64,000 nucleotides of DNA from positions 1,426,001 through 1,490,000 of the forward strand of contig CM059432.1 of assembly GCA_030390025.1 (NCBI GenBank), read 5' to 3'. Position numbers and translations under genes: made by a program. The notes beneath the pieces were generated by a model. That model had not been told where the DNA came from. It did not search any database and worked only from the letters and a program-made list of their open reading frames with translations. This DNA comes from Squalus acanthias. Its lineage: Eukaryota. Positions 2,347 through 51,712 of this stretch are shown here, piece after piece (positions within the stretch are counted from its first letter, which is position 1; each line of letters begins with the position of its first letter).

Positions 2347-5300
2347 TTTTTATTTTTTCATTTATTCGTTTCTGGGATGTGGGCGTCGCTGGCAAGGCCA
2401 GCATTTATTGCCCATCCCTAATTACCCTCGAGAAGGTGGTGGTGAGCCGCCGCCTTGAACCGCTGCAGTGGTGAAGGTGCACCCACAGTGCTGTTAGGGA
2501 GGGAGTTGCAGGATTTTGACCCAGCGACGATGAAGGAGCGGTGATATATTTCCAAGTCAGGATGGTGTGCAACTTGGAGGGGAACTTTCAGGTGGTGGTG
2601 TTCTCATGCGCCTGCTGCCCTTGTCCTTCTAGGTGGTAGAGGTGGCGGGTTTGGGAGGTGCTGCTGAAGAAGCCTTGGTGAGTTGCTGCAGTGCATTTTG
2701 TAGATGGTACACACTGCAGCCATGGTACACCGGTGGTGCAGGGAATGACTGTCTACTCGGAGCTCCGACATGGCAAGAGAGCCCCAGGTGGGCAGAGGAA
2801 ACGCTTCAAGAACACCCTCAAAGCCTCCTTGAAAAAGTGCAACACCCCCACCAGCACCTGGGAATCCCTCGCCCAAGACCGCACAAAGTGGAGGAGAAGC
2901 ATCCGGGATGGCGCCGAACACCTCGAGTCTCTTCGCCGGGAGCAAGCGGAAGCCAAGCGCAAACAGTGGAAGGAGCGCACGTCAACCCAAGCACCCCACC
3001 CACCCGCCCCTTCAACCACCGTCTGCCCCACCTGTGACAGAGACTGTAGGTCCCGCATTGGACTCAGCAGCCACCTGAGAACTAATTTTTAATGTGGAAG
3101 CAAGTCATCCTCGGTTCCAAGGGACTGCCTAAGAAGACGATGACTGTTTAAGGTGGTGGATGGGGTGCCAATCAAGCGGGCTGTTCTGTCCTGGATGGTG
3201 TCGAGCTTCTTGAGTGTTGTTGGAGCTGCACTCATCCAGGCACGAGGAGAGTATTCCATCACACTCCTGACTTGTGCCTTGTAGATGGTGGAAAGACTTT
3301 GGGGGGGGGTCAGGAGGTGAGACTCTCGCCGTAGAATACCCAGCCTCTGACCTGCTCTTGTAGCCACAGTATTTATGTGGCTGGTCCAGTTAAGATTTCT
3401 GGTCAATGGTGACCCCCAGGATGTTGATGGTGGGGGATTCGGTGATGGTGGTAATGCCATTGAATGTCAAGGGGCGGTGAATATACTCTCGCTTGTTGGA
3501 GATAGTCATTTCCTGGCACTTGTGTGGCGCGAATGTTACTTGCCACTTATCAGCCCAAGCCTGAATGTCATCCAGGTCTTGCTGCATGCGGGCATGGACT
3601 GCTTCATTATCTGAGGAGTTGCGAATGGAACTGAACACTGTGCAATCATCAGCGAACATCCCCATTTCTGACCTTATGATGGAGGGAAGGTCATTGATGA
3701 AGCAGCTGAAGATGGTTGGGTCTAGGACACTGCCCTGAGGAACTCCGGCAGCGATGTCCTGGGGCTGAGAGGATTGACCTCCAACAACCACAACCATCTT
3801 CCTTTGTGCTAGGTATGACTCCAGCCAGTGGAGAGTTTTCCCCGATTCCCATTGCCTTCAATTTTACTGGAGCTCCTTGATGCCACACTTGGTCAAATGC
3901 TGCCTTGATGTCAAGGGCAGTCACTCTCACCTCATCTCTGGAATTGAGCTCTTTTGTCCATGTTTGGACCAAGGCTGTAATGAGGTCTGGAGCCGAGTGG
4001 TCCTGGTGGAACCCAAACTGAGCATCAGTGAGCAGATTATTGGTGAGTAAGTGCTGCTTGATAGCAATGTTGATGACACCTTCCATCACTTTGCTGATGA
4101 TTGAGAGTAGACTGATGGGGCGGTAATTGGTTGGATTGGATTTGTCCTGCTTTTTGTGGACAGGACATACCTGGGCAGTTTTCCACATTGTCGGGTAGAT
4201 GCCAGTGTTGCAGCTGTACTGGAACAGCTTGGCTAGTTCTGGAGCACAAGTCTTCAGCACGATAGCTGGGATGCTGTCGGGGCCCACAGCCTTTGCTGTA
4301 TCCAGTGCGCTCAGCTGTTTCTTGATATCACGTGGAGTGAATTGAACTGGCTGAAGACTGGCTTCTGTGATGGTGGGGACCTCAGGAGGAGGCTAATATG
4401 GATTATTCACTCGGCATTTCTTGCTTAAGATGGTTGCAAATACTACAGCCTTGTCTTTTGCACTCGTGTGCTAGGCTCCACCATCATTGAGGATGGGGAT
4501 ATTCCTGGAGCCTCCTCCTCCAGTTAGTTGTTTAATTGTCCACCACCATTCACGACTGGATGTGGCAGGACTGCAGAACTTTGATCTGTTCCGTTGATTG
4601 TTGGACCGCTTAGCCCTGTCTATAGCATGCTGCTTCCGCTGTTTAGCATGCATGTAGTCTTGTGTTGCAGCTTCCAGGTTGGCACCTCATTTTTAGGTAT
4701 GCCTGGTTCTGCTACTGGCATGCTCTTCTGCACTCCTCATTGAACCAGGGTTGGTCCTCTGGCTTGATGGTAATGGTAGAGTGATTATATGCCGAGCCAT
4801 CAGTTTACAGATTGTGGTGGAATATAATTCTGCTGCTGCTGATGGCCCACAGCGCCTCATGGATGCCCAGTTTTGAACTGCTAGATCTGTTCTGAATCTA
4901 TCCCATTTAGCACGGTGGTAGTGCCACACAACACGATGGAGGGTGGCCTCAGTGCGAAGATGAGATTTCATCTCCACAAGGACTGTGCGGTGGTCACTGC
5001 TACCAATGCTGTCTTGGACAGATGCATCTGCGACAGGTAGATTGTGAGGACGAGGTCAAGTAGGTTTTTCCCTCGTGTCTTCTCTCACCACCTGTCGCAG
5101 TCCTAGTCTGGCAGCTATGTCTTTCAGGACTCGGCCAGCTCGGTCAGTAGTAGTGCTACCGAGTTACTCTTGGTGATGGACATTGAAGTCCCCAACCCAG
5201 AGTACATTCTGTGCCCTTGCTACCCTCAGTGCTTCTTCAACATGGAGGAGTACTGACTCATCAGCTGGGGGAGGGCGGTAGGTGGTAATCAGCTGGAGGT

Positions 5301-5984
5301 TTCCTTGCCCGTGCTTGACCTGAAGCCATGAGACTTCATGGAGTCCAGAGTCAATGTTGAGGACTCCCAGGGCCACTCCCTCCCACTGTGCCGCCACCTC
5401 TGGTGGGTCTGTCCTGCCGGTGGGACAGGACATACCCGGGGATGGTGATGGAGGAATCTGGGACATTGGCTGAAAGGTATGATTCTGTGAGCATGACTGT
5501 CAGGCTGTTGCTTGACTAGTCTGTGGGACAGCTCTCCCAATTTTGACAAGTCCCCAGATGTTGGTGAGGAGGACTTTGCAGGGTCAACTGGGTTGGGTGT
5601 GCCATTGTCGTGTCCGAAGTTGGCGCCGAGGTCGATGTCGGGTGGTCCATCCGGTTTTATTCTTATTATTGTTTTTTGTAGCGGTTAAGTACAACTGAGT
5701 GTCTTGCTTGGCCATTTCAGAGGGCAGTTAAGAGTCAACCACATTGCTGTGGGTCTGGAGTCACATATAGGCCAGACCGGGTAAGGGCGGCAGATTTCCT
5801 TCCCTAAAGGACATTAGTGAACCAGATGGGTTTTTACGACAATCCGGTAGTTTCATGGTTACCATTACTGATACTAGCTTTTTTATTCCAGATTAATTGA
5901 ATTAACTGAATTTAAATTCCCCAGCTGCCGTGGTGGGATTTGAACTCACATCTCTGGATCATTAGTCCTGGTCTCTGGATTACT
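2347..5984 (-). mobile_element. Near full-length single-ORF CR1-group (Zenon-like) LINE, disrupted, with tRNA-like 5' head
   Basis: Colinear fragments: EN (YRPP, VGDFNVHHQE, ~5164-5549), RT (GPDSIP, YRPISLLS, LDIKAAFD, GVPQGSVL, FADD, 3390-4287), C-terminus (YKAQVRSVMEYS, LHHRCTMAAVC), A-rich tail near 2347. No room for an ORF1. Clade name from recall. Confidence 0.85.
2753..3139 (+). mobile_element. RTE-clade (BovB-like) LINE 3' fragment nested in the Zenon-like LINE
   Basis: YSELRHGKRAPGGQRKRFKNTLK...DRTKWR...CPTCDRDCRSRIGLSSHLRT; TSD atgactgt at 2745-2752 and 3140-3147. Confidence 0.85.
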
Positions 5985-6103
5985 GCCTTATCAGCCTACA
6001 ATCATCAGCAAAGTGATGGAAGGAGTTGTCAACAGTGCTATCAAGGAGCACTTAATTACCAATAACCTGCTCGCCGATGCTCAGTTTGGGTTCTGCCAGA
6101 ATC

Positions 6104-6380
6104 ACGCAGCAGCCAGTTTGCGCACAGCAAGCTCCCACAAATATCAATGAGATAAATGGGCAAACTGTTAAGAGTGGTGCAGGTTGAGGAATAATTATCG
6201 GCCAGGTCACCGAGAGATCTTCCCCGATCTTCTTTCATCTGAAAGACAACATTTTCCGACAATGTAGTACGGCACTGGAGTGTCAGATGAGGTTAAATGC
6301 TCAAACTCTGGAGTGGGCTTGAACCCATAACCACCTGACTCAGAGGTGTGCACCACCAACTGAGCCACAGCTGACACTCA
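6104..6380 (-). mobile_element. Degenerate DeuSINE (SacSINE1-like)
   Basis: Homologous to 10597-11066 in reverse, including the tRNA-like head with B-box. Confidence 0.65.
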
Positions 6381-14900: not shown

Positions 14901-17900
14901 AACATAAGAACATAAGAACTAGGAGTAGGCCATCCAGCCCCTCAAGCCTGCTCCGCCATTCAATAAGATCATGGCTGATCTTCTACCTCAACTCCACTTT
15001 CCTGCACCATAAATACTGTGGCAACAAGAGCAGGTCAGAGGTTGGGTATTCTGCGGCGAGTGTCTCACCTCCTGACTCCCCAAAGCCTTTCCACCATCTA
15101 CAAGACACAAGTCAGGAGTGTGATGGAATACTCTCCACTTGCCTAGATGAGTGCAGCTCCAACAACACCAAGAAGCTCGACACCATCCAGGACAAAGCAG
15201 CCCACTTGATTGGCACCCCGTCCACCACCATAAACATTCACTCCCTCCACCACCGGCGCACCGTGGCTGCAGTGTGTACCATGTACAAGATGCACTGCAG
15301 GAACTCGCCAAGGCTTCTTCGGCAGCACCTCCCAAACCCGCGACCTCTTCCACCTAGAAGGACAAGGGCAGCAGGCACATGGGAACACCACCACCTCCAA
15401 GTTCCCCTCCAAGTCACACACCATCCTGACTTAGAAGTATATCGCTGAAACTTCATCGTCACTGGGTCAAAATCCTGGAACTCCCTCCCCAACAGCACTG
15501 TGGGAGCACCTTCACCACACGGACGGCAGCGGTTCAAGAAGGCAGCTCACCACCACCTTCTCCAGGGCAACTAGGGATGGGCAATAAATGCTGGCCTTGC
15601 CAGCGACGCCCAGATCCCATAAACAAATGATTAAAAAAAATCCCCATATCCCTTGATTCCTTTAATATTCAAAAATCTATCTCTCTGTCTTGAATATACT
15701 CAACAACTGAGCCTCCACAGCCCTCTGGGGTAGAGAATTCCAAAGATTCACCACCCTCTGAGTGAAGAAAATTTCTCATCTCAGTACTAAATGGCCGACC
15801 CCTTATTCCGAGACTGTGACTTCTGGTTCTAGACTCCCCAGCCAGGGGAAACATCCTCCCTGCATCGACCCTGTCAAGCCCTGTAAGAATTTTGTATGTT
15901 TCAATGAGATCACCTCATTCTTCTAAACTCTAGAGAATATAGGCCTAGTCTACTCAATCTCTCCTCATAGGACAATCCCCAATCCCAGGAATCAAACTCA
16001 TGAACCTTCGTTGCACTCCCTCGATGGCAAGTATATCCTTCGTTAGGTAAGGAGACCAAAACTGTACACAATACTCCAGGTGTGGTCTCACCAGGGCCCT
16101 TTATAATTGCAGTAAGACATCTTTACTCTTATACTCAAATCCTCTTGTAATAAAGGCCAACATACCATTTGCTTTCCTAATTGCTTGCTGTACCTGCATG
16201 TTAACTATCAGTGATTTGTGTACAAGGACACCCAGGTCCCTCTGAACACCAACATGCACAGGCAGGAAGGGAATCAGTGACCGCCAGGCAGAGTAGCAGG
16301 CGCACGCAGGTAGTGCAGGGGTCCCCTGTGGCCATCCCCCTCTCAAACAGATATACCGCTTTGGATTTTGTTGGGGGAGATGGCTTATCGGGAGAAGGCA
16401 GCAGTAGCCAACTTCCTGGCACCATGGGTGGTTCTGCTGCACAGGACGGGAGGAAAAAGTGCGGGAGAGTTATAGTGATAGGGGATTCTATTGTAAGGGG
16501 AAAAAATAGGCGTTTCTGCGGCCGCAAACGAGACTCCAGGATGGTATGTTGCCTCCCTGGTGCAAGGGTCAAGGATGTCTCGGAGCGACTGCATTCTGGA
16601 GGGGGAGGGTGAACAGCCAGCTGTCGTGGTGCATACAGGTATCAACGATATAGGTAAAAAACGGGATGAGGTCCTAAAAGCTGAATATAGGGAGTTAGGA
16701 GGTAAATTAAAAAATAGGACCTCAAAGGTAGTAATCTCAGGATTGCTACCAGTGCCACGTGCTAGTCAGAGTAGAAATAGAAGGATATTTCAGATGAATA
16801 CGTGGCTAGAGGAATGGTGCAAGGGGGAGGGATTGAAATTCCTGGGACATTGGAACCGGTATTGGGGGAGGTGGGACCAGTACAAACTGGACGGTTTGCA
16901 CCTGGGCAGGACCGGGACCGATGTCCAAGGGGGAGTGTTTGCTAGTGCTGTTGGGGAGGGTTTAAATAGCAGGGGGTTGGGAACCTGTGCAGGGAGACAG
17001 AGGAAAGGGAAGCAAGGATAGAAGCAAAAGACAGAAGGAGAAAAGTAAAAGTGGAAGGCAGAGAAATCAAGTGTGTAAATCAAACAGGGCCACAGTAAAT
17101 AATAACTCTAAAAGGACTAAGTGTTAAAAAAACAAGCCTGATGGCTGTGTGTCTTAATGCGAGAAGCATTCGTAATAAGGTGGATGAATTAGCTGCGCAA
17201 ATAGATGTAAAAGAATATGATATAATTGGGATTACGGAGACATGGCTCCAGGGTGACCAAGGCTGGGAATTCAACATCCAGGGGTATTCAATATTCAGGA
17301 AGAACAGGCAAAAAGGAAAAGGAGGTGGGGTAGCATTGCTGGTTAAAGAGGAGATTAATACAATAGTAAGGAAGGATATTAGCTCTGATGATGTGGAATC
17401 TGTATGGGTAGAACTGAGAAATACCAAGGGGCAGAAAACGTTAGTGGGAGTTGCATACAGACCCCCAAACAGTAATGCTGAGGTTGGGGATGGCATTAAA
17501 CAGGAAATTAGAGACGCGTGCAATAAGGGCACAGCAGTTATCATGGGTGACTTTAATCTACATATAGATTGGGCTAACCAAATTAGTAACAATACTGTGG
17601 AGGAGGAATTCCTGGAGTGTATACGGGATGGTTTCCTGGACCAATATGTCGAGGAACCAACTAGAGATCAGGCCATCTTAGACTGGGTATTATGTAATGA
17701 GAAAGGATTAATTAGCAATCTTGTTGTGCGAGGCCCCTTGGGGAGGAGCGATCATAAAATGATAGAATTCTTCATTAAGATGGAGAGTAAAGGAGTTGAC
17801 TCAGAGACTAGGGTCCTGAATTTAAATAAAGGAAACTACGATGGTATGAGGCACGAGTTGGCTAGGATGGATTGGGGAATGTTACTTAAAGGGTTGACGG

Positions 17901-29708: not shown

Positions 29709-30092
29709 CTGAGGGGAGATTTAATTGAGGTGTATAAGATTACGAGGGGCCTCGATAGAGTGGATAGGAAGGACCTATTTCCCTTAGCAGAGACGTCAAT
29801 ATCCAGGGGGCATAGATTTAAAGTAATTGGTAGAAGGATTCGAGGGAAGTTGAGACCTTTTTCACCCAGAGGGTGGTGGGGGTCTGGAACTCACTGCCTG
29901 AAAAGGTGGTCGAGGCAGAAACCCTCATCGCATTTAAAAAGTACTTGGCTATGCACTTGAAGTGCCGTAACCTGCAGGGCTACGGATCAAGAGCTGGAAA
30001 GTGGGATTAGGCTGGATAGCTCTTTTAGAGCCAGTACAGACACGATGGGCCGAATGACCTCCTTCTGTGCTGCAAGCGTCGATGATTCTATG
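29709..30092 (+). mobile_element. CR1 3' fragment (a second one at ~30560-30847 lies on the other side of the FFAT exon)
   Basis: LRGDLIEVYKITRGLDRVD, RGHRFKV and CR1 3' UTR. Confidence 0.82.
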
Positions 30093-30237
30093 AAAAATAT
30101 TACGCATAATAAAGAGTATGTCTCATGTGCAATTACATAATGGAATCGGTGTTTCCACTTATGCAGATATTTTTCGTCTGTTTTACTTGTAAATCCAATG
30201 ACATCGCTGACCACAACAAATCCTTTACTCAACTCAC

Positions 30238-30400
30238 CTGAAAGAGCATCGTAGAACTCATCATCACTCAGCACACTCTGGGGCGGGGACCCTTTGACTA
30301 ACGATTGCTCAAGTTCATGATGCTCACAGGCCAGAGTCTGGAGAGCTTCGGAAAGTATCTTGTTCTTCTCTTGTTCCTGCTCTAATCGCAGATTGCGCAC
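30238..30400 (-). CDS. OSBPL1A: Internal coding exon of oxysterol-binding protein-related protein 1 (coiled coil + FFAT motif)
   Basis: Translates VRNLRLEQEQEKNKILSEALQTLACEHHELEQSLVKGSPPQSVLSDDEFYDALS, near-identical to recalled human ORP1L (VRNFKLEQEQEKNKILSEALETLATEHHELEQSLVKGSPPASILSEDEFYDALS). Acceptor ctctccccag| after a TC-rich tract, donor CAG|GTGAGT; 163 nt, phase 0 in, phase 1 out. Confidence 0.93.
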
Positions 30401-31436
30401 CTGGGGAGAGAAGGGAGAGAGAGAGAGAGAAAATGAGTGCGGGAGAAGAGAGCACGCAATGGTGGAGAGAGGGAAGGAGGAGAGATGGAGAGAAAGAAAG
30501 AGACAGAGAGGAGAAAAGAAAGAGAGGAGGAGAGAGGGGAGAGAAAAGAAAGAAGTGGCGAAAGGGTGGGTTACCAGAGGACACAGATTGAAGGAGATTG
30601 GCAACAGGGCCAGAGGCGACATGAGGAGACATTTTTTGCGCGGCGAGTTGTTGTGATCTGGAACGCGCTGCCTGAAAGGGCGGAGGAAGCAGATTCAATA
30701 GTAACTTTCAAAAAGGAATTGGATAAATACTTGAAGGGAAAAAAATTTACAGGGCTATAGGGAGTGCGACTAATTGGTTAGCTCTACCAAAGAGCCATCA
30801 CAGGCACGATGGGCTGAATGGCCTCCTTCTGTGCTGTATTATTCTAAGAGAGCGAGGGGAAGAAAAGCAAGTGAAATAAAGAGAGAAGCGAGAAAGAGCA
30901 AGAGAGAGAGAGACAATGAATTGAACATATTTTAAACTTCCACATTCAAAGGATGGCGAGTCAAATCAATAGGGAACCAATCCATGAGTTTGGTGCCACG
31001 AACAGAAAAATAAATCCTGTATGTCTAACCATGATATGCAATCTTCACAGGCTCAACTTCCATAAAGAAAGAAACCCTCCCATAGGTTCAGTGAGCTAGC
31101 TAATGCCCCAATTAAGAAAAAATCAGAGTCCAGGTCAACGAAAATTTCATTATTGGCCTCCCCCAACCAGAAAAGTGGTGTAACCCCAGCCCCCACGTCA
31201 TCAATCGCACAACATACCCCAGAGACAAAGGCAGCCAAGATGAAATAAAGAAAGGTGAGGCCAGCTTTGAATGGAGAAGTACCAATTCCCATTAGGCTTC
31301 ATAAAAGGTGTAAAATGATGCTTCATGAAGCATGCAAGCACATTACCTGCAAGGCAGCAGCATGTCATAATTAAAAGAAACCCATGATGTAGTCACAACG
31401 CGAGCAGAATGAACCTCTTCTCCACATAACCTCGGC

Positions 31437-32988: not shown

Positions 32989-35900
32989 ACGAATCGAATA
33001 ACTAGGGCTGTGGAGAGGACTTTAAACTAATTAGTGGGGGGGAGGTTTCAAGAGAGCAAAAAATAAAAATGACAACAGAGAGGGTCATAGACATAGGTAG
33101 CAGTAGGGGAATCACTAATCAGAGCGTGGCAGGAAGGGACAGAGTGTGTGGAGTAAAAGGTAAAGTGGTAAAAAGTGAAAAAGCTGGAACTAAGTGCCAC
33201 AAAGCATATTTGAAAGTTCTCTATCTGAATGCACGTAGCATTCGTAACAAAATAGACGAGTTAATGGCACAAATAACTACATATGGTTATGATATTGTGG
33301 CCATTACAGAAACATGGCTGCAGGGTGACAATGCCTGGGAATTAAACATACCAGGTTATTTAACGATCAGGAAGGACAGGCAGGAAGGAAGGGGAGGTGG
33401 GGTGGCTATGTTAATAAAGGAAGGAATCACTGTAATACAGAGTAATGATATTGGGTCAAAAAATCATGATAATGAAACAGTTTGGGTGGAGATAAGGAAT
33501 AATAAGGGGAAAAAAACACTAGTGGGCGTAGTTTATAGGCCTCCGAACAGTTGCAACTCTGTTGGACGGAGTATCAATCAGGAAATAGTTGAGGCATGTA
33601 ATAAGGGAACATCTATAATTATGGGGGATTTTAACTATCATATTAATTGGACAAATCAAATGGGGCAGGGCTGCCTTGAGGATGAGTTCATTGAGTGTAT
33701 TAGGGATGGGTTTCTTGAGCAGTATGTAACTGAACCGACCAGGGGGCAAGCAACCTTAGATCTGGTCCTGTGTAACGAGACAGGATTAATTAAAAATGTC
33801 CTAGTAAAGGATCCCCTTGGAATGAGTGACCATAACATGGTTGAATTCCATATTCAATTAGAGGGTGAGAAGGTTGGATCTCAAACAAGCGTGCTAAGCT
33901 TGAATAAAGGAGACTATGAAGGTATGCGAGCGGAATTGAGTAGAGTGGATTGGGAAAATAGATTAAAGGGTAAGACGACACATGATCAGTGGTGTACATT
34001 CAAGGAGTTATTTTACAACTTCCCAAAAAAATATATTCCACTGAAAAGAAAAGGGTGTAAAAGAAAGGACAGTCATCCGTGGCTAAGTAAAGAAATTAAG
34101 GATAGTATTCGACTAAAAACAAGGGCATATAAGGTAGCGAAATCTAGTGGGAGGACAGAGGATTGGGAAAACTTTAAAAGGCAGCAAAAAATAACAAAAA
34201 GATTGATTAAGAAAGGGAAGATAGATTATGAAAGTAAATTAGCAAAAAATATAAAAACAGATAGTAAGAGTTTTTATAGTTATATAAAAAGAAAAAGGGT
34301 GGCTAAAGTAAATGTTGGTCCCTTAGAGGATGAGACCGGGAAATTAATGTTGGGAAATATGGAGATGGCAAAAACACTGAATGAATATTTTGTATCAGTC
34401 TTTACAGTAGAGGACACTAAGAATATCCCAACACTGGACAAACAGGGGGCTATAGGGGGAGAGGAGCTAAACACGATCAAAATCACTAAGGAAGTGGTAC
34501 TCGGTAAAATAATGGGACTCAAGGCGGATAAATCACCTGGACCTGATGGCTTACATCCTAGAGTCTTGAAGGAAGTGGCGGTAGGGATTGTAGATGCATT
34601 GGTAATAATTTTTCAAAACTCCCTGGATTCCGCTGAGGTCCCGGCAGACTGGAAAACTGCTAATGTAACACCCTTATTTAAAAAGGGCAGTAGACAGAAG
34701 GCTGGTAACTATAGACCGGTTAGCCTAACATCTGTGGTAGGTAAAATTTTGGAGTCCATTATTAAGGAAACAGTAACAGGACATTTGGATAATCATAATT
34801 TAATAGGACAAAGTCAGCATGGTTTTACGAAGGGGAAGTCATGTTTGACAAATTTGCTGGAGTTCTTTGAGGAAGTAACACATAGAGTGGATAAAGGGGA
34901 ACCAGTGGACGTAGTGTATTTAGACTTCCAAAAGGCATTTGACAAGGTGCCACACAAAAGATTATTGCTTAAGGTAAAAAATCACGGGATTGGGGGTAAT
35001 ATTCTGGCATGGATAGAGGATTGGCTATCCAACAGAAAGCAAAGAGTTGGGATAAATGGTTCATTCTCAGACTGGCAATCAGTAACTAGTGGTGTTCCAC
35101 AGGGGTCAGTGCTGGGTCCCCAACTCTTTACAATCTATATTAACGATTTGGAGGAAGGGACCAAGTGTAACATATCAAAATTTGCAGATGATACAAAGAT
35201 GGGAGGGAAAGTAGTGAGTGAGGAGGACATAAAAAACCTGCAAGGGGACATAGACAGGCTAAGTAAGTGGGCAGAGATTTGGCAGATGGAATACAACACT
35301 GGAAAGTGTGAGGTGATGCACTTTGGCAGGAAAAATCCTAGAGCAATTTATTATCTTAATGGCAAGAAACTGGAGAGTACTGAAGTGCAAAGGGATCTGG
35401 GGGTCCTGGTGCACGAAACTCAAAAGGTTAGTATGCAGGTGCAGCAAGTGATTAAGAAGGCAAATGGAATGTTGGCTTTCATTGCTAGGGGGATAGAATA
35501 TAAAAATAGGGAGGTATTGCTTCAGTTGTACAAGGTATTGGTGAGACCGCACCTGGAATACTGCATACAGTTTTGGTGTCCTTACTTAAGGAAAGACATC
35601 CTTGCTCTCGAGGCAGTGCAAAAAAGGTTCACTCGGTTAATCCCGGGGATGAGGGGGTGGTCATATGAGGAGAGGTTGGGTAGATTGGGACTCTACTCAT
35701 TGGAGTTCAGAAGAATGAGAGGCGATCTTATTGAAACATATAAGATTGTGAAGGGGTTGGATCGGGTGGATGCGGGGAGGATGTTCCCGATGACGGGTGA
35801 GACTAGAACTAGGGGACATAGTCTTAGAATAAGGGGCTGCTCTTTCAAAACTGAGATGAGGAGGAACTACTTCACTCAGAGGGTGGTAGGTCCATGGAAT

Positions 35901-36257
35901 ATGCTGCCACAAAAAGCTGTAGAAGCTACAACATTAATTAAATTTAAAACAGAAATAGACAGTTTCCTAGAAGTAAAGGGCATTAAGGGTTACGGGGAGC
36001 GGGCAGGAATTTGGACATGAGTCTAGGTTCGGATCGGTCATGGCCCTGTGGGTAGTGGAGCGGGCCCAGGGACCGTGTAGCCTGATTCTGCTCCTATTTC
36101 GTGTGTGCAATTCTGTTAGATGCAGGAGATGGTTCTGTGATAGATAGTAGATTGGCGGTTAGGATCAGATCAGCCATGATCTTATTGAATGGCGGAGCAG
36201 GCTCGAGGGGCCGATTGGCCTACTCCTGCTCCTATTTCTTATGTTCTTATGTTCTTA
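32989..36257 (+). mobile_element. Young 5'-truncated CR1 LINE (end of ORF1, intact ORF2, 3' UTR, (TTCTTATG)n tail)
   Basis: TSD tgaata at 32983-32988 and 36258-36263; ORF1 remnant TNRITRAVERTLN* at 32989-33030; 8-bp tail repeats. Confidence 0.93.
33069..36020 (+). CDS. Intact CR1 LINE ORF2 (APE endonuclease + reverse transcriptase), 983 aa
   Basis: Uninterrupted ORF with EN motifs YLNARS, ITETWL, YRPP, MGDFN, SDH; RT motifs PGPDG, YRPVSLT, LDFQKAFD, GVPQGSVLGP, FADD; CR1-type C-terminus (RPHLEYCIQFW, RRMRGDLI). Confidence 0.96.
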   Translation: MTTERVIDIGSSRGITNQSVAGRDRVCGVKGKVVKSEKAGTKCHKAYLKVLYLNARSIRNKIDELMAQITTYGYDIVAITETWLQGDNAWELNIPGYLTIRKDRQEGRGGGVAMLIKEGITVIQSNDIGSKNHDNETVWVEIRNNKGKKTLVGVVYRPPNSCNSVGRSINQEIVEACNKGTSIIMGDFNYHINWTNQMGQGCLEDEFIECIRDGFLEQYVTEPTRGQATLDLVLCNETGLIKNVLVKDPLGMSDHNMVEFHIQLEGEKVGSQTSVLSLNKGDYEGMRAELSRVDWENRLKGKTTHDQWCTFKELFYNFPKKYIPLKRKGCKRKDSHPWLSKEIKDSIRLKTRAYKVAKSSGRTEDWENFKRQQKITKRLIKKGKIDYESKLAKNIKTDSKSFYSYIKRKRVAKVNVGPLEDETGKLMLGNMEMAKTLNEYFVSVFTVEDTKNIPTLDKQGAIGGEELNTIKITKEVVLGKIMGLKADKSPGPDGLHPRVLKEVAVGIVDALVIIFQNSLDSAEVPADWKTANVTPLFKKGSRQKAGNYRPVSLTSVVGKILESIIKETVTGHLDNHNLIGQSQHGFTKGKSCLTNLLEFFEEVTHRVDKGEPVDVVYLDFQKAFDKVPHKRLLLKVKNHGIGGNILAWIEDWLSNRKQRVGINGSFSDWQSVTSGVPQGSVLGPQLFTIYINDLEEGTKCNISKFADDTKMGGKVVSEEDIKNLQGDIDRLSKWAEIWQMEYNTGKCEVMHFGRKNPRAIYYLNGKKLESTEVQRDLGVLVHETQKVSMQVQQVIKKANGMLAFIARGIEYKNREVLLQLYKVLVRPHLEYCIQFWCPYLRKDILALEAVQKRFTRLIPGMRGWSYEERLGRLGLYSLEFRRMRGDLIETYKIVKGLDRVDAGRMFPMTGETRTRGHSLRIRGCSFKTEMRRNYFTQRVVGPWNMLPQKAVEATTLIKFKTEIDSFLEVKGIKGYGERAGIWT

Positions 36258-42393: not shown

Positions 42394-42589
42394 GGTCTTT
42401 CGGGTGTCTGCCAGTGGTACCATCAAGTCGCTCTTGGTGGTGGACATTGAGGTTTCCCCACCCAGTGGGTCCTTGCTGCCCTCAGAGCTTCCTCCCAGGG
42501 AGGTTCAGTACAGAGGAGCCCTGATTCATCAGTTGAAAGGGACAGAGCTGTAATTGATGAGCAGGAGTTTTCCTTGACCTTGCTGGCTC

Positions 42590-42761
42590 CAACGTTTTCC
42601 CTTTAAGCGGCTTGGGCGCGCAGCGCTCCAGGGGTCCCACGCAGCCGGTGAGCTGCCTTTTAAATTTGTTTTTTAAAATCGCGCATGCGGGGAATTTTGA
42701 ATGGGCCGCGCCGCCCATTAAAGGAGCCCGCGCGGGCCAAAAAAAATTACAGGGAAAATTG
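42590..42761. mobile_element. Short GC-rich MITE, probably hAT superfamily (other copies ~41107-41235, ~56083-56214, ~63316-63472)
   Basis: Imperfect TIRs caacgttttccct / agggaaaattg; 8-bp flanks gctggctc / gtcggctc (6/8 match); internal cgcgcatgcg shared by all four copies. Confidence 0.6.
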
Positions 42762-43367
42762 GTCGGCTCCCTTCCCTGTAGGACATTAGTGAAGAATTTT
42801 TTTTTTTTTTTAAAAACAACAATCCCGAAGCTTTCACTGTAATGTTTCTGGGGATAGTCCGCAAATTACGCTTTACTGAACTCAATTTCACAACTTCCCA
42901 ATTTTTTTAGGAATTCAGACTTCTAATGTAAAACAATAGTTTCCAAACTTTAAATGGCTTCATTTTGTGGCTAATCATTTTTTTAACATTTGTAAAAATA
43001 AGCCATTTGCTGTAAGAATTTTCTGTAACTTGACCAAACTTAAAAAGCTAACCAAATTTAATATACCAGCATGCCTCGAGAGGCTGAGCGGTTGGTTCCT
43101 CTGGGAACTCTGTACGAAAGCTGTTAATCAGATAAGGAAGCGTCAGACCCTGAGCAGGAACAAACAGGTTGGGCGTTACAAAGACAGGAACATCTTCAGG
43201 CAAGTGGTGTGAAGGGCTTTGGGGCCCACTGATGAGAGGATAACAACTGCCGACCATCTGTCACACGGTTTGGGACACATACGCACTGAGGAGCCTGCCC
43301 AGGTTTTTTGGGTATGAGATATGATGTTTTAAGACACTCGGGGCTGCTGCAGTCGGGGGAGGCAACC

Positions 43368-48061: not shown

Positions 48062-48499
48062 TTTTTTTTTTAATTCGTTCATGGACGTCGCTGGAAGGGC
48101 CAGTATTTATTGCCCATCCCTAATTGCCTCGAGAAGATGGTGGTGAGCCGCCTTCTTGAACCTAACGGTTTGGTACAACGGAATCTCTCGCTGGGCCATT
48201 TCAGAGGGCAGTTAAGAGTCAATCACATTGCTGTGGGTCTGGAGTCACATATCGGCCAGACCGGGTAAGGGCGGCAAATTTCCTTCCCTAAAAGGACATT
48301 AGTGACCCAGATGGGTTTTTACGACAATCCAGTAGTTTCATGATCACCATTACTGATACTAGCTTTTTAATTCCAGATTTATTTAATTGAATTTAAATTC
48401 CCCAGCTGCCGTGGTGGGATTTGAACTCATATCTCGGGATCATTAGTCCCAGCCTCTGGATTACTAGCCCAGTGACATAACCGCTATGCTACCGTACCC
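48062..48499 (-). mobile_element. tRNA-headed SINE sharing both 5' region and 3' tail with the Zenon-like LINE
   Basis: A-box tagcatagcgg, B-box gagttcaaatcc; ~48165-48464 matches 5681-5984; ~48062-48160 matches the LINE tail 2347-2460. Confidence 0.85.
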
Positions 48500-51283: not shown

Positions 51284-51712
51284 TCTTCTTCTTCTTCTTG
51301 GGCAGTCCCTCGGAACCAAGGATGACTTGCTTCCACATTAAAAATGAGTTCTCAGGTGACTGATGAGTCCAATGCGGGACCTACAGTCTCTGTCACAGGT
51401 GGGGCAGACGGTGGTTGAAGGGGCGGGTGGGTGGGGTGCTTGGGTTGACGTGCACTCCTTGCGCTTGGCTTCCGCTTGCTCCTGGTGAAGAGACTCGAGG
51501 TGTTCAGCGCCTTCCCGGATGCTTCTCCTCTACTTTGTGTGGTCTTGGGCCAGGGATTCCCAGGAGTCGGTGGGGATGTTGCACTTTTTCCAAGGAGGAT
51601 TTGAGGGTGTCCTTGAAGCGTTTCCTCTGCCCACCTGGGGCTCTCTTGCTGTGTCGGAGCTCCGAGTAGAGCGCTTGTTTTGGGAGTCTCGTATCGGGCA
51701 TGCGGACGATGT
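51284..51712 (-). mobile_element. RTE-clade LINE 3' fragment with (AAG)n tail
   Basis: HIVRMPDTRLPKQALYSELRHSKRAPGGQRKRFKDTLK; homologous to 2753-3139. Confidence 0.85.

Follow-up and report, generated by a model that had tools for sequence, protein, structure and literature searches.

Does a retrotransposon that begins like a tRNA gene record an accident of one insertion, or does it belong to a family with a promoter of its own? In the textbook division, long interspersed elements (LINEs) are protein-coding transcripts of RNA polymerase II (Pol II), whereas short interspersed elements (SINEs) are short non-coding transcripts of RNA polymerase III (Pol III). The question is raised by a degraded minus-strand LINE spanning 5984 to about 2347 in a 64,000-nt stretch of the Squalus acanthias genome (GenBank assembly GCA_030390025.1, contig CM059432.1, positions 1,426,001 to 1,490,000, forward strand), called the window here. 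Genome-wide copies confirmed that the element is an abundant family of 3.3-kb LINEs whose single open reading frame (ORF) encodes an endonuclease and a reverse transcriptase (RT), and showed that the tRNA-derived head is the family's own 5' end. By consensus comparison, we assign the family to elasmobranch Zenon, a CR1-group LINE of Stuart et al. 2026 (PMC13343379). It is a known family whose tRNA-derived head is deeply conserved and had apparently gone unremarked. The window copy consists of the following parts.

5925..5984, minus strand: 5'-truncated tRNA-derived head comprising the anticodon arm's 3' half, an extra hairpin and the T-arm; the A-box is among the roughly 34 nt lost (Rfam RF00005 match on the full-length copy L098)
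5936..5947, minus strand: B-box (GAGTTCAAATCC), the same box as at the starts of the published elasmobranch Zenon consensus sequences
5716..5924, minus strand: remaining 5' untranslated region (UTR), the "body", common to the short derivative by sequence comparison
2418..5715, minus strand: single decayed ORF with a basic N-terminal extension, APE endonuclease and RT, bearing stops, frameshifts and one insertion
2347..2417, minus strand: 3' UTR with AATAAA and a short A-rich tail

No RNase H match was found in the ORF of this copy. The initial annotation had proposed that the first 300 bp or so of the LINE repeat the head and body of a SINE, include a B-box, lack an A-box and run shortly into endonuclease coding sequence, and each of these observations holds. 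Positions 5679-5984 (minus strand) align with 48163-48465 at 91% over 307 bp, the B-box is placed at 5936-5947, and the endonuclease motif VLLTNIWG begins about 105 bp past the end of the SINE match. The A-box is absent because the copy is truncated by about 34 nt at its 5' end, at a short sequence also present in the target. Many junction-matching genomic copies start about 34 nt further 5' and have the A-box.

Three differently chosen samples of genomic copies were compared. A search for the junction between head and endonuclease gave 10,609 candidates, of which 40 were scored; all 40 span the junction at a level of at least 91%. Loci found by endonuclease protein served as a head-independent sample (48 examined of 137 listed, 46 distinct). 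Eleven of these 46 copies lie within 5 nt of the 5' end, nine more include the B-box, 21 end in the body and five at the ORF start; none has another 5' UTR or an ORF1. The third sample (24 loci) was selected on a segment lying about 1.2 kb into the element, and those of its copies that extend to the 5' UTR all have the same one. Full-length copies begin exactly at the tRNA-derived head with A and B boxes, and the distance between the 5' end and the endonuclease frame is about 340 nt in all copies reaching that end. Among 57 upstream flanks there was no alternative sequence common to the copies; junction-adjacent sequence is shared by two pairs only and is, by eye, an abundant CR1-type repeat. 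Thirteen of 20 junction-selected copies extended in the 3' direction are near-full-length (3.2-3.3 kb), and looking for an older subfamily yielded this family again, at 81-93%.

Chance adjacency, or a single template switch that joined a SINE to a truncated LINE, has nothing in its favor beyond the single window copy. The junction is constant in all three samples and in the consensus sequences of five species described below, leaving this explanation a probability next to nil, and we reject a one-off chimera. The autonomous single-ORF lineage with a captured tRNA promoter that the initial annotation envisaged is upheld in its structural part, namely a fixed tRNA-derived head, a constant junction and no ORF1; the promoter part is discussed with the transcription evidence.

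Stuart et al. (PMC13343379; bioRxiv 10.64898/2026.01.13.699120) describe Zenon LINEs in five elasmobranchs that are over 84% alike, consistently lack ORF1 and end in a poly-A tail. We compared the first 400 nt of each sequence in their Suppl. Table 2, by eye and with two exact motif matches. Over this length SquAca_Zenon-1 (3,314 nt) is nearly letter-for-letter identical to our full-length copies. SquAca_Zenon-1, CarCar_Zenon-1, RhiTyp_Zenon-1, ScyCan_Zenon-1 and HypSab_Zenon-1 are the same family as the present element, sharing the lack of ORF1, the APE-RT organization and the poly-A tail, the last seen here as A-rich ends in the 71 tails listed. The head and its A-box are present in all five consensus starts (great white, whale shark, catshark, dogfish and stingray). 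The full B-box is present in four of the five; it is perfect in great white, whale shark and catshark, and the stingray's is one base short. The elasmobranch starts contain no TTTT run; the hagfish and coelacanth Zenon starts have neither box nor head and contain several. The structure of the tRNA-headed Zenon is established. The terms "tRNA", "promoter" and "polymerase III" occur zero times in the main text of PMC13343379, and "tRNA" zero times in the supplement text examined. The T-run depletion and the short derivatives found in the present analysis are unreported in the passages of that paper covered here. Because the absence of ORF1 is general in Zenon (PMC13343379), it is not tied to the head. 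Neither a shark LINE with a tRNA head nor an autonomous LINE driven by Pol III was described in any paper found by our literature search, which lacked most subscription papers and Repbase and is therefore no proof.

An RT tree of 190 sequences, none of them named references, gave a support of 0.44 near the query, and the RT is 34% identical to the window's canonical CR1 and 46-48% to the nearest unnamed compact elements. Long relatives are endonuclease-RT proteins of 930-980 aa at no more than 48% identity, many on contigs of 3.2-3.7 kb; close short matches (69-83%) bear the genus names Heptranchias, Heterodontus and Cetorhinus. About 20 EukProt-labelled predicted proteins (P0158-P0265) match the RT region at 58-82%, and the ESM Atlas returned generic RT clusters only. 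Vingi, an early guess for the LINE, was dropped as the element matches the Zenon consensus. MetaSINE, another early guess, was set aside: by eye the body is unlike the bivalve Meta-domain sequences in the PMC4824008 supplement, and searches with five motifs gave no match. The 5' ends of some metagenomic relatives seemed to resemble HDV-like ribozymes, which Rfam did not confirm.

The tRNA origin of the head is supported by the Rfam tRNA model, which scores 29.6 bits on the full-length copy L098 (cut-off 29; E 2.4e-4; model positions 7-64) when a 381-base stretch, and only such a stretch, is scanned. The match covers the D-arm, the anticodon arm and the T-arm, accommodates 22 additional variable-region bases, and leaves the acceptor stem unmatched (positions 1-6 and 65-71 are missing). 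Scanning nine whole loci together gave nothing at E<=1, and ARAGORN found no tRNA in the window. Comparison with 14 tRNA types of the genome left Ser-AGA, Leu-TAA and Thr-AGT as candidate sources. The genome also holds long tandem tRNA gene arrays (contigs C889, C26 and C2208), with a spacing of about 1.7 kb for Ser-AGA and about 2.06 kb for Thr-AGT.

These structural features bear on the explanation that the head acts as RNA. A tRNA-like fold would be cut from read-through host transcripts, for example by RNase P, and would define or protect the 5' end or recruit ribosomes. Other ORF1-less LINEs offer a parallel in self-cleaving ribozymes, and in R2, RTE and Ingi a ribozyme is known to define the 5' end (PMC5786205). 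The D-arm, anticodon arm and T-arm are kept, and the extra hairpin differs from the great white and catshark consensus by two double changes that preserve pairing (by eye). However, the acceptor stem is unmatched by the tRNA model, the first bases vary between species, the stingray consensus is without the extra hairpin, and such a role does not predict the depletion of T-runs. We consider it quite improbable.

The initial annotation also raised horizontal transfer of the head, for which the collections searched, holding few animal genomes, gave no evidence. Neither 80 metagenomic LINE loci (best E 0.97) nor prokaryote assemblies contained a match to the head, and two patterns had none in viral contigs. 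A 16-mer gave 14 viral matches. A protein search with a translated body stretch was also without a match, which is weak evidence. Invertebrates may carry the head. Two metagenome runs, one of them RNA labelled as coral, span the element in all of its 30 bins. In the coral run, 583 of 3133 contigs over the whole element match at 95% or more; contamination and an invertebrate carrier are indistinguishable there, and nothing was drawn from either run.

The ORF that follows the head was under purifying selection. Pfam found an APE endonuclease (PF14529/PF03372), an RT (PF00078) and no other family. Across 883 codon columns there is no majority stop codon, and of the non-CpG variants found in at least four copies, 35 are synonymous and 32 non-synonymous; the corresponding counts among singletons are 343 and 970 (Fisher p=1.5e-5). 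This synonymous excess among shared variants indicates that the source elements were selected for the protein while bearing the tRNA-headed 5' end. An in-frame ATG lies 147 nt upstream of the endonuclease motif (5713-5715 in the window copy). Two stops come directly after it in 51 of 79 copies; both are missing from the window copy. The next in-frame Met is only past the endonuclease domain. A 48-codon upstream frame overlaps the ORF start and is present in the consensus of all five elasmobranch species (by eye); its ATG is found in 45 of 47 matched copies and is absent in the window's variant. Since the ATG is blocked by two stops in most copies and the next Met is too far downstream, the ORF probably starts at a non-AUG codon or is reached from the 48-codon frame. 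Non-AUG starts accompany uncapped RNAs in R2-type elements.

The sense strand was then examined for Pol III terminators, namely runs of four or more T (T4+). Across 52 copies (156,200 bp) there are 19 such runs at scattered positions (0.12/kb); 37 of the 52 copies have none, and no TTTT is fixed. RTE-like copies of the same genome have 0.99 T4+/kb (excluding three copies below 1 kb) and no TT depletion, with a T content of 0.186 versus 0.202 in the Zenon copies. All 20 RTE-like copies have at least one T4+ run, although these runs may share one site. The window's 3-kb CR1 has eight. Against a codon-aware null, four natural frames have an observed/expected ratio of T3+ runs of 0.38-0.44, which is lower than in any of the 59 control ORFs (58 from metagenomic LINEs and one from a CR1; minimum 0.61). 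The terminators are thus depleted relative to controls, and the significance is modest, as detailed below. T-runs before the A tail were also considered as a Pol III terminator and rejected as evidence, because the T stretch is a lone T in 31 of the 55 tails parsed. The 3' tails have the form T(n)A(m), where n ranges from 1 to 9 while the total length stays similar; this pattern suggests that A tails are converted to T step by step after insertion.

The tRNA-derived head together with the missing T-runs makes this likely to be a rare protein-coding retrotransposon made by Pol III. We lean towards transcription of the coding element by Pol III from the head, whose promoter function we infer from two features of the sequence, box conservation and T-run depletion. 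In such a mechanism, TFIIIC would bind the A and B boxes, and Pol III would start at the head and read through 3.3 kb, terminators having been selected against. The uncapped RNA would be translated without an ordinary AUG, from a near-cognate codon or by a shift from the 48-codon frame. The protein would recognise the 3' tail and copy full-length and deleted RNAs by target-primed reverse transcription. Pol III RNAs can retrotranspose without ORF1p (Kroutter et al. 2009, PMC2666806). This result fits an ORF1-less element and does not explain the loss of ORF1, because all Zenons are without it.

Several points weigh against Pol III transcription. Pol III RNAs are normally short and untranslated. 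The p value of the T-run depletion ranges from 0.003 to 0.14 depending on the null. The absence of TTTT is weak taken alone, with p of about 0.015 under base shuffling and 0.13-0.14 under dinucleotide shuffling. Codon permutation over the whole ORF gave p 0.09 for the absence of TTTT, p=0.011 for T3+ runs, and p=0.05 for canonical and interrupted terminators together. L082, one of three copies tested by shuffling, has two T4+ runs and is not significant, and because the copies are one lineage, the absence of TTTT is a single observation. The head folds no better than shuffled sequences (z -1.8 to +0.5), the B-box of the subfamily in the window is not an ideal one, and all RNA runs found consist of contigs, uninformative on start, strand or polymerase. 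In addition, Kojima 2024 (PMC10886601) argues that autonomous elements must use Pol II.

Alternatively, Pol II may transcribe the element from a promoter in the 250-nt body or the head. The tRNA piece would be a relic or a TFIIIC-binding opener of chromatin, and Pol III might drive the short derivatives only. Of 30 copies, 26 have AATAAA in the 3' UTR, which together with the A tail fits Pol II polyadenylation, and LINEs use Pol II according to Kojima 2018 (PMC5786205) and Kojima 2024. The absence of TTTT is non-significant with dinucleotide or codon use fixed, and the body is at least as conserved between species as the head (by eye). However, the boxes stand at tRNA-like positions right at the exact 5' end in five species, and the depletion of TT and T3+ is specific to the Zenon family when compared with RTE, CR1 and the 58 metagenomic LINE ORFs. 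Moreover, an AUG start is missing in most copies, whereas a capped mRNA would be expected to retain one. We regard transcription by Pol II as rather unlikely; should Pol II be used after all, the finding reduces to a structural feature of a known family that had gone unremarked.

If Pol III is used, Zenon would provide a natural protein-coding Pol III transcript, long and translated. The complete proposal is that all shark and ray Zenons form an autonomous LINE lineage, transcribed by Pol III end to end from a captured tRNA promoter, with uncapped RNA translated without AUG and complete SINEs arising by simple deletion. Taken as a whole, it is plausible yet somewhat doubtful. The division between LINEs and SINEs would no longer hold for a LINE that, across sharks and rays, retains a tRNA promoter at its own 5' end and is depleted of T-runs along 3.3 kb.

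The SINE that first drew attention to the head proved to be derived from the LINE.

48062..48499, minus strand: short internally deleted derivative ("SINE") with the full head, the 5' UTR body and the last 100 nt or so of the LINE; A-box 48481-48491, B-box 48417-48428

In addition to the head and body noted in the initial annotation, its positions 48082-48162 match the last 82 bp of the LINE (2380-2461) at 89%. The 440-bp form has 40 scored full-length genomic matches at 84-88%. All 12 short copies examined lack the interior of the element: their 5' part stops at positions 324-340 of the element and their 3' part begins at 3171-3191, with at least six different deletion junctions among them. 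The short "SINEs" are repeated internal deletions of the LINE that keep the head, 5' UTR and tail. Because the head, body and tail are all shared with the LINE and several junctions exist, the short element is a deletion product; as donor of the head it is ruled out for the copies seen. An older, lost SINE may have been the donor. The 440-bp form has the features of a tRNA-derived SINE (head, body, LINE-derived tail, no coding capacity, many copies). The 3.3-kb element has the tRNA-derived head with A and B boxes, yet its ORF under purifying selection sets it apart from short, non-coding SINEs.

Three further features of the window concern the family.

5979..6105, plus strand: piece of an older same-family copy in opposite orientation, the target of the window copy's insertion; other pieces at 10-208, 615-845 and 2085-2347
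2753..3139, plus strand: 3' fragment of an RTE-like LINE, inserted later and flanked by an 8-bp target duplication (2745-2752 and 3140-3147)
42413..42890, minus strand: very old fragment with a 5' UTR body remnant (about 42770-42890), an unrelated 168-bp repeat (about 42597-42764) and an endonuclease remnant (42413-42584)

The last was thought to be a much older copy (42400-42915) with the head next to endonuclease sequence. About 120 nt of 5' UTR body (p=0.002, 500 shuffles) and a clear endonuclease remnant are indeed there; the tRNA head is undetectable (p=0.55). The separate 168-bp repeat lies between the two remnants and about 470 nt are missing; support for the linkage of head and endonuclease from this copy is weak. 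That repeat, inserted in the old Zenon fragment, is GC-rich and has about 40 scored genomic matches at 78-82%. The fragments at 2753-3139 (plus strand) and 51287-51670, which we take to be 3' fragments of an RTE-like LINE, belong to a family that is very abundant in the genome, and the first has a short AAG-repeat tail. Just upstream of the window copy, at about 6105-6380 (minus strand), lies a second, different tRNA-headed SINE, presumably of the Deu-type SacSINE1 kind. An unbroken 1004-codon CR1-type ORF2 at 33006-36020 (plus strand), together with upstream ORF1-like frames in other copies (16497-17021), points to a CR1 family that is young. A probable host exon at 29987-30694 (minus strand; LQTLACEHHELEQSL...DDEFYDAL) is, we assume, oxysterol-binding-protein-like, and the window seems to lie inside a gene.

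Known systems share parts of this organization. The lepidopteran Zenon (3.3 kb) repeatedly yields short elements of its 5' and 3' ends, named Persaeus (PMC6740152). Like the shark short form, Persaeus is an internally deleted Zenon with both ends; unlike it, Persaeus is described without tRNA homology or a Pol III promoter, whereas the shark LINE and its deletion products both carry the tRNA head. RTE-1_DAn and related elements are another LINE group with tRNA-like sequence, from a different clade (RTE, Drosophila), mentioned in one sentence of PMC5786205; a follow-up literature search on that sequence found nothing. Cassandra, Helenus and Ajax (TRIMp3 elements; PMC10886601) are likewise non-SINE retroelements with a Pol III promoter derived from a small RNA. 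However, they are short, non-coding and of the long terminal repeat type, and their autonomous partners are argued to need Pol II. Bov-tA, SINE2-1_ACar and CoeSINE4 (Kojima 2018, PMC5786205) likewise join a head to the 5' and 3' parts of a LINE. In these the head is joined to the non-autonomous form alone, and in Kojima's model it is added to an already deleted LINE. The autonomous shark LINE is itself headed, and therefore one deletion gives a complete SINE of head, body and tail, a route of SINE birth opposite to the usual model.
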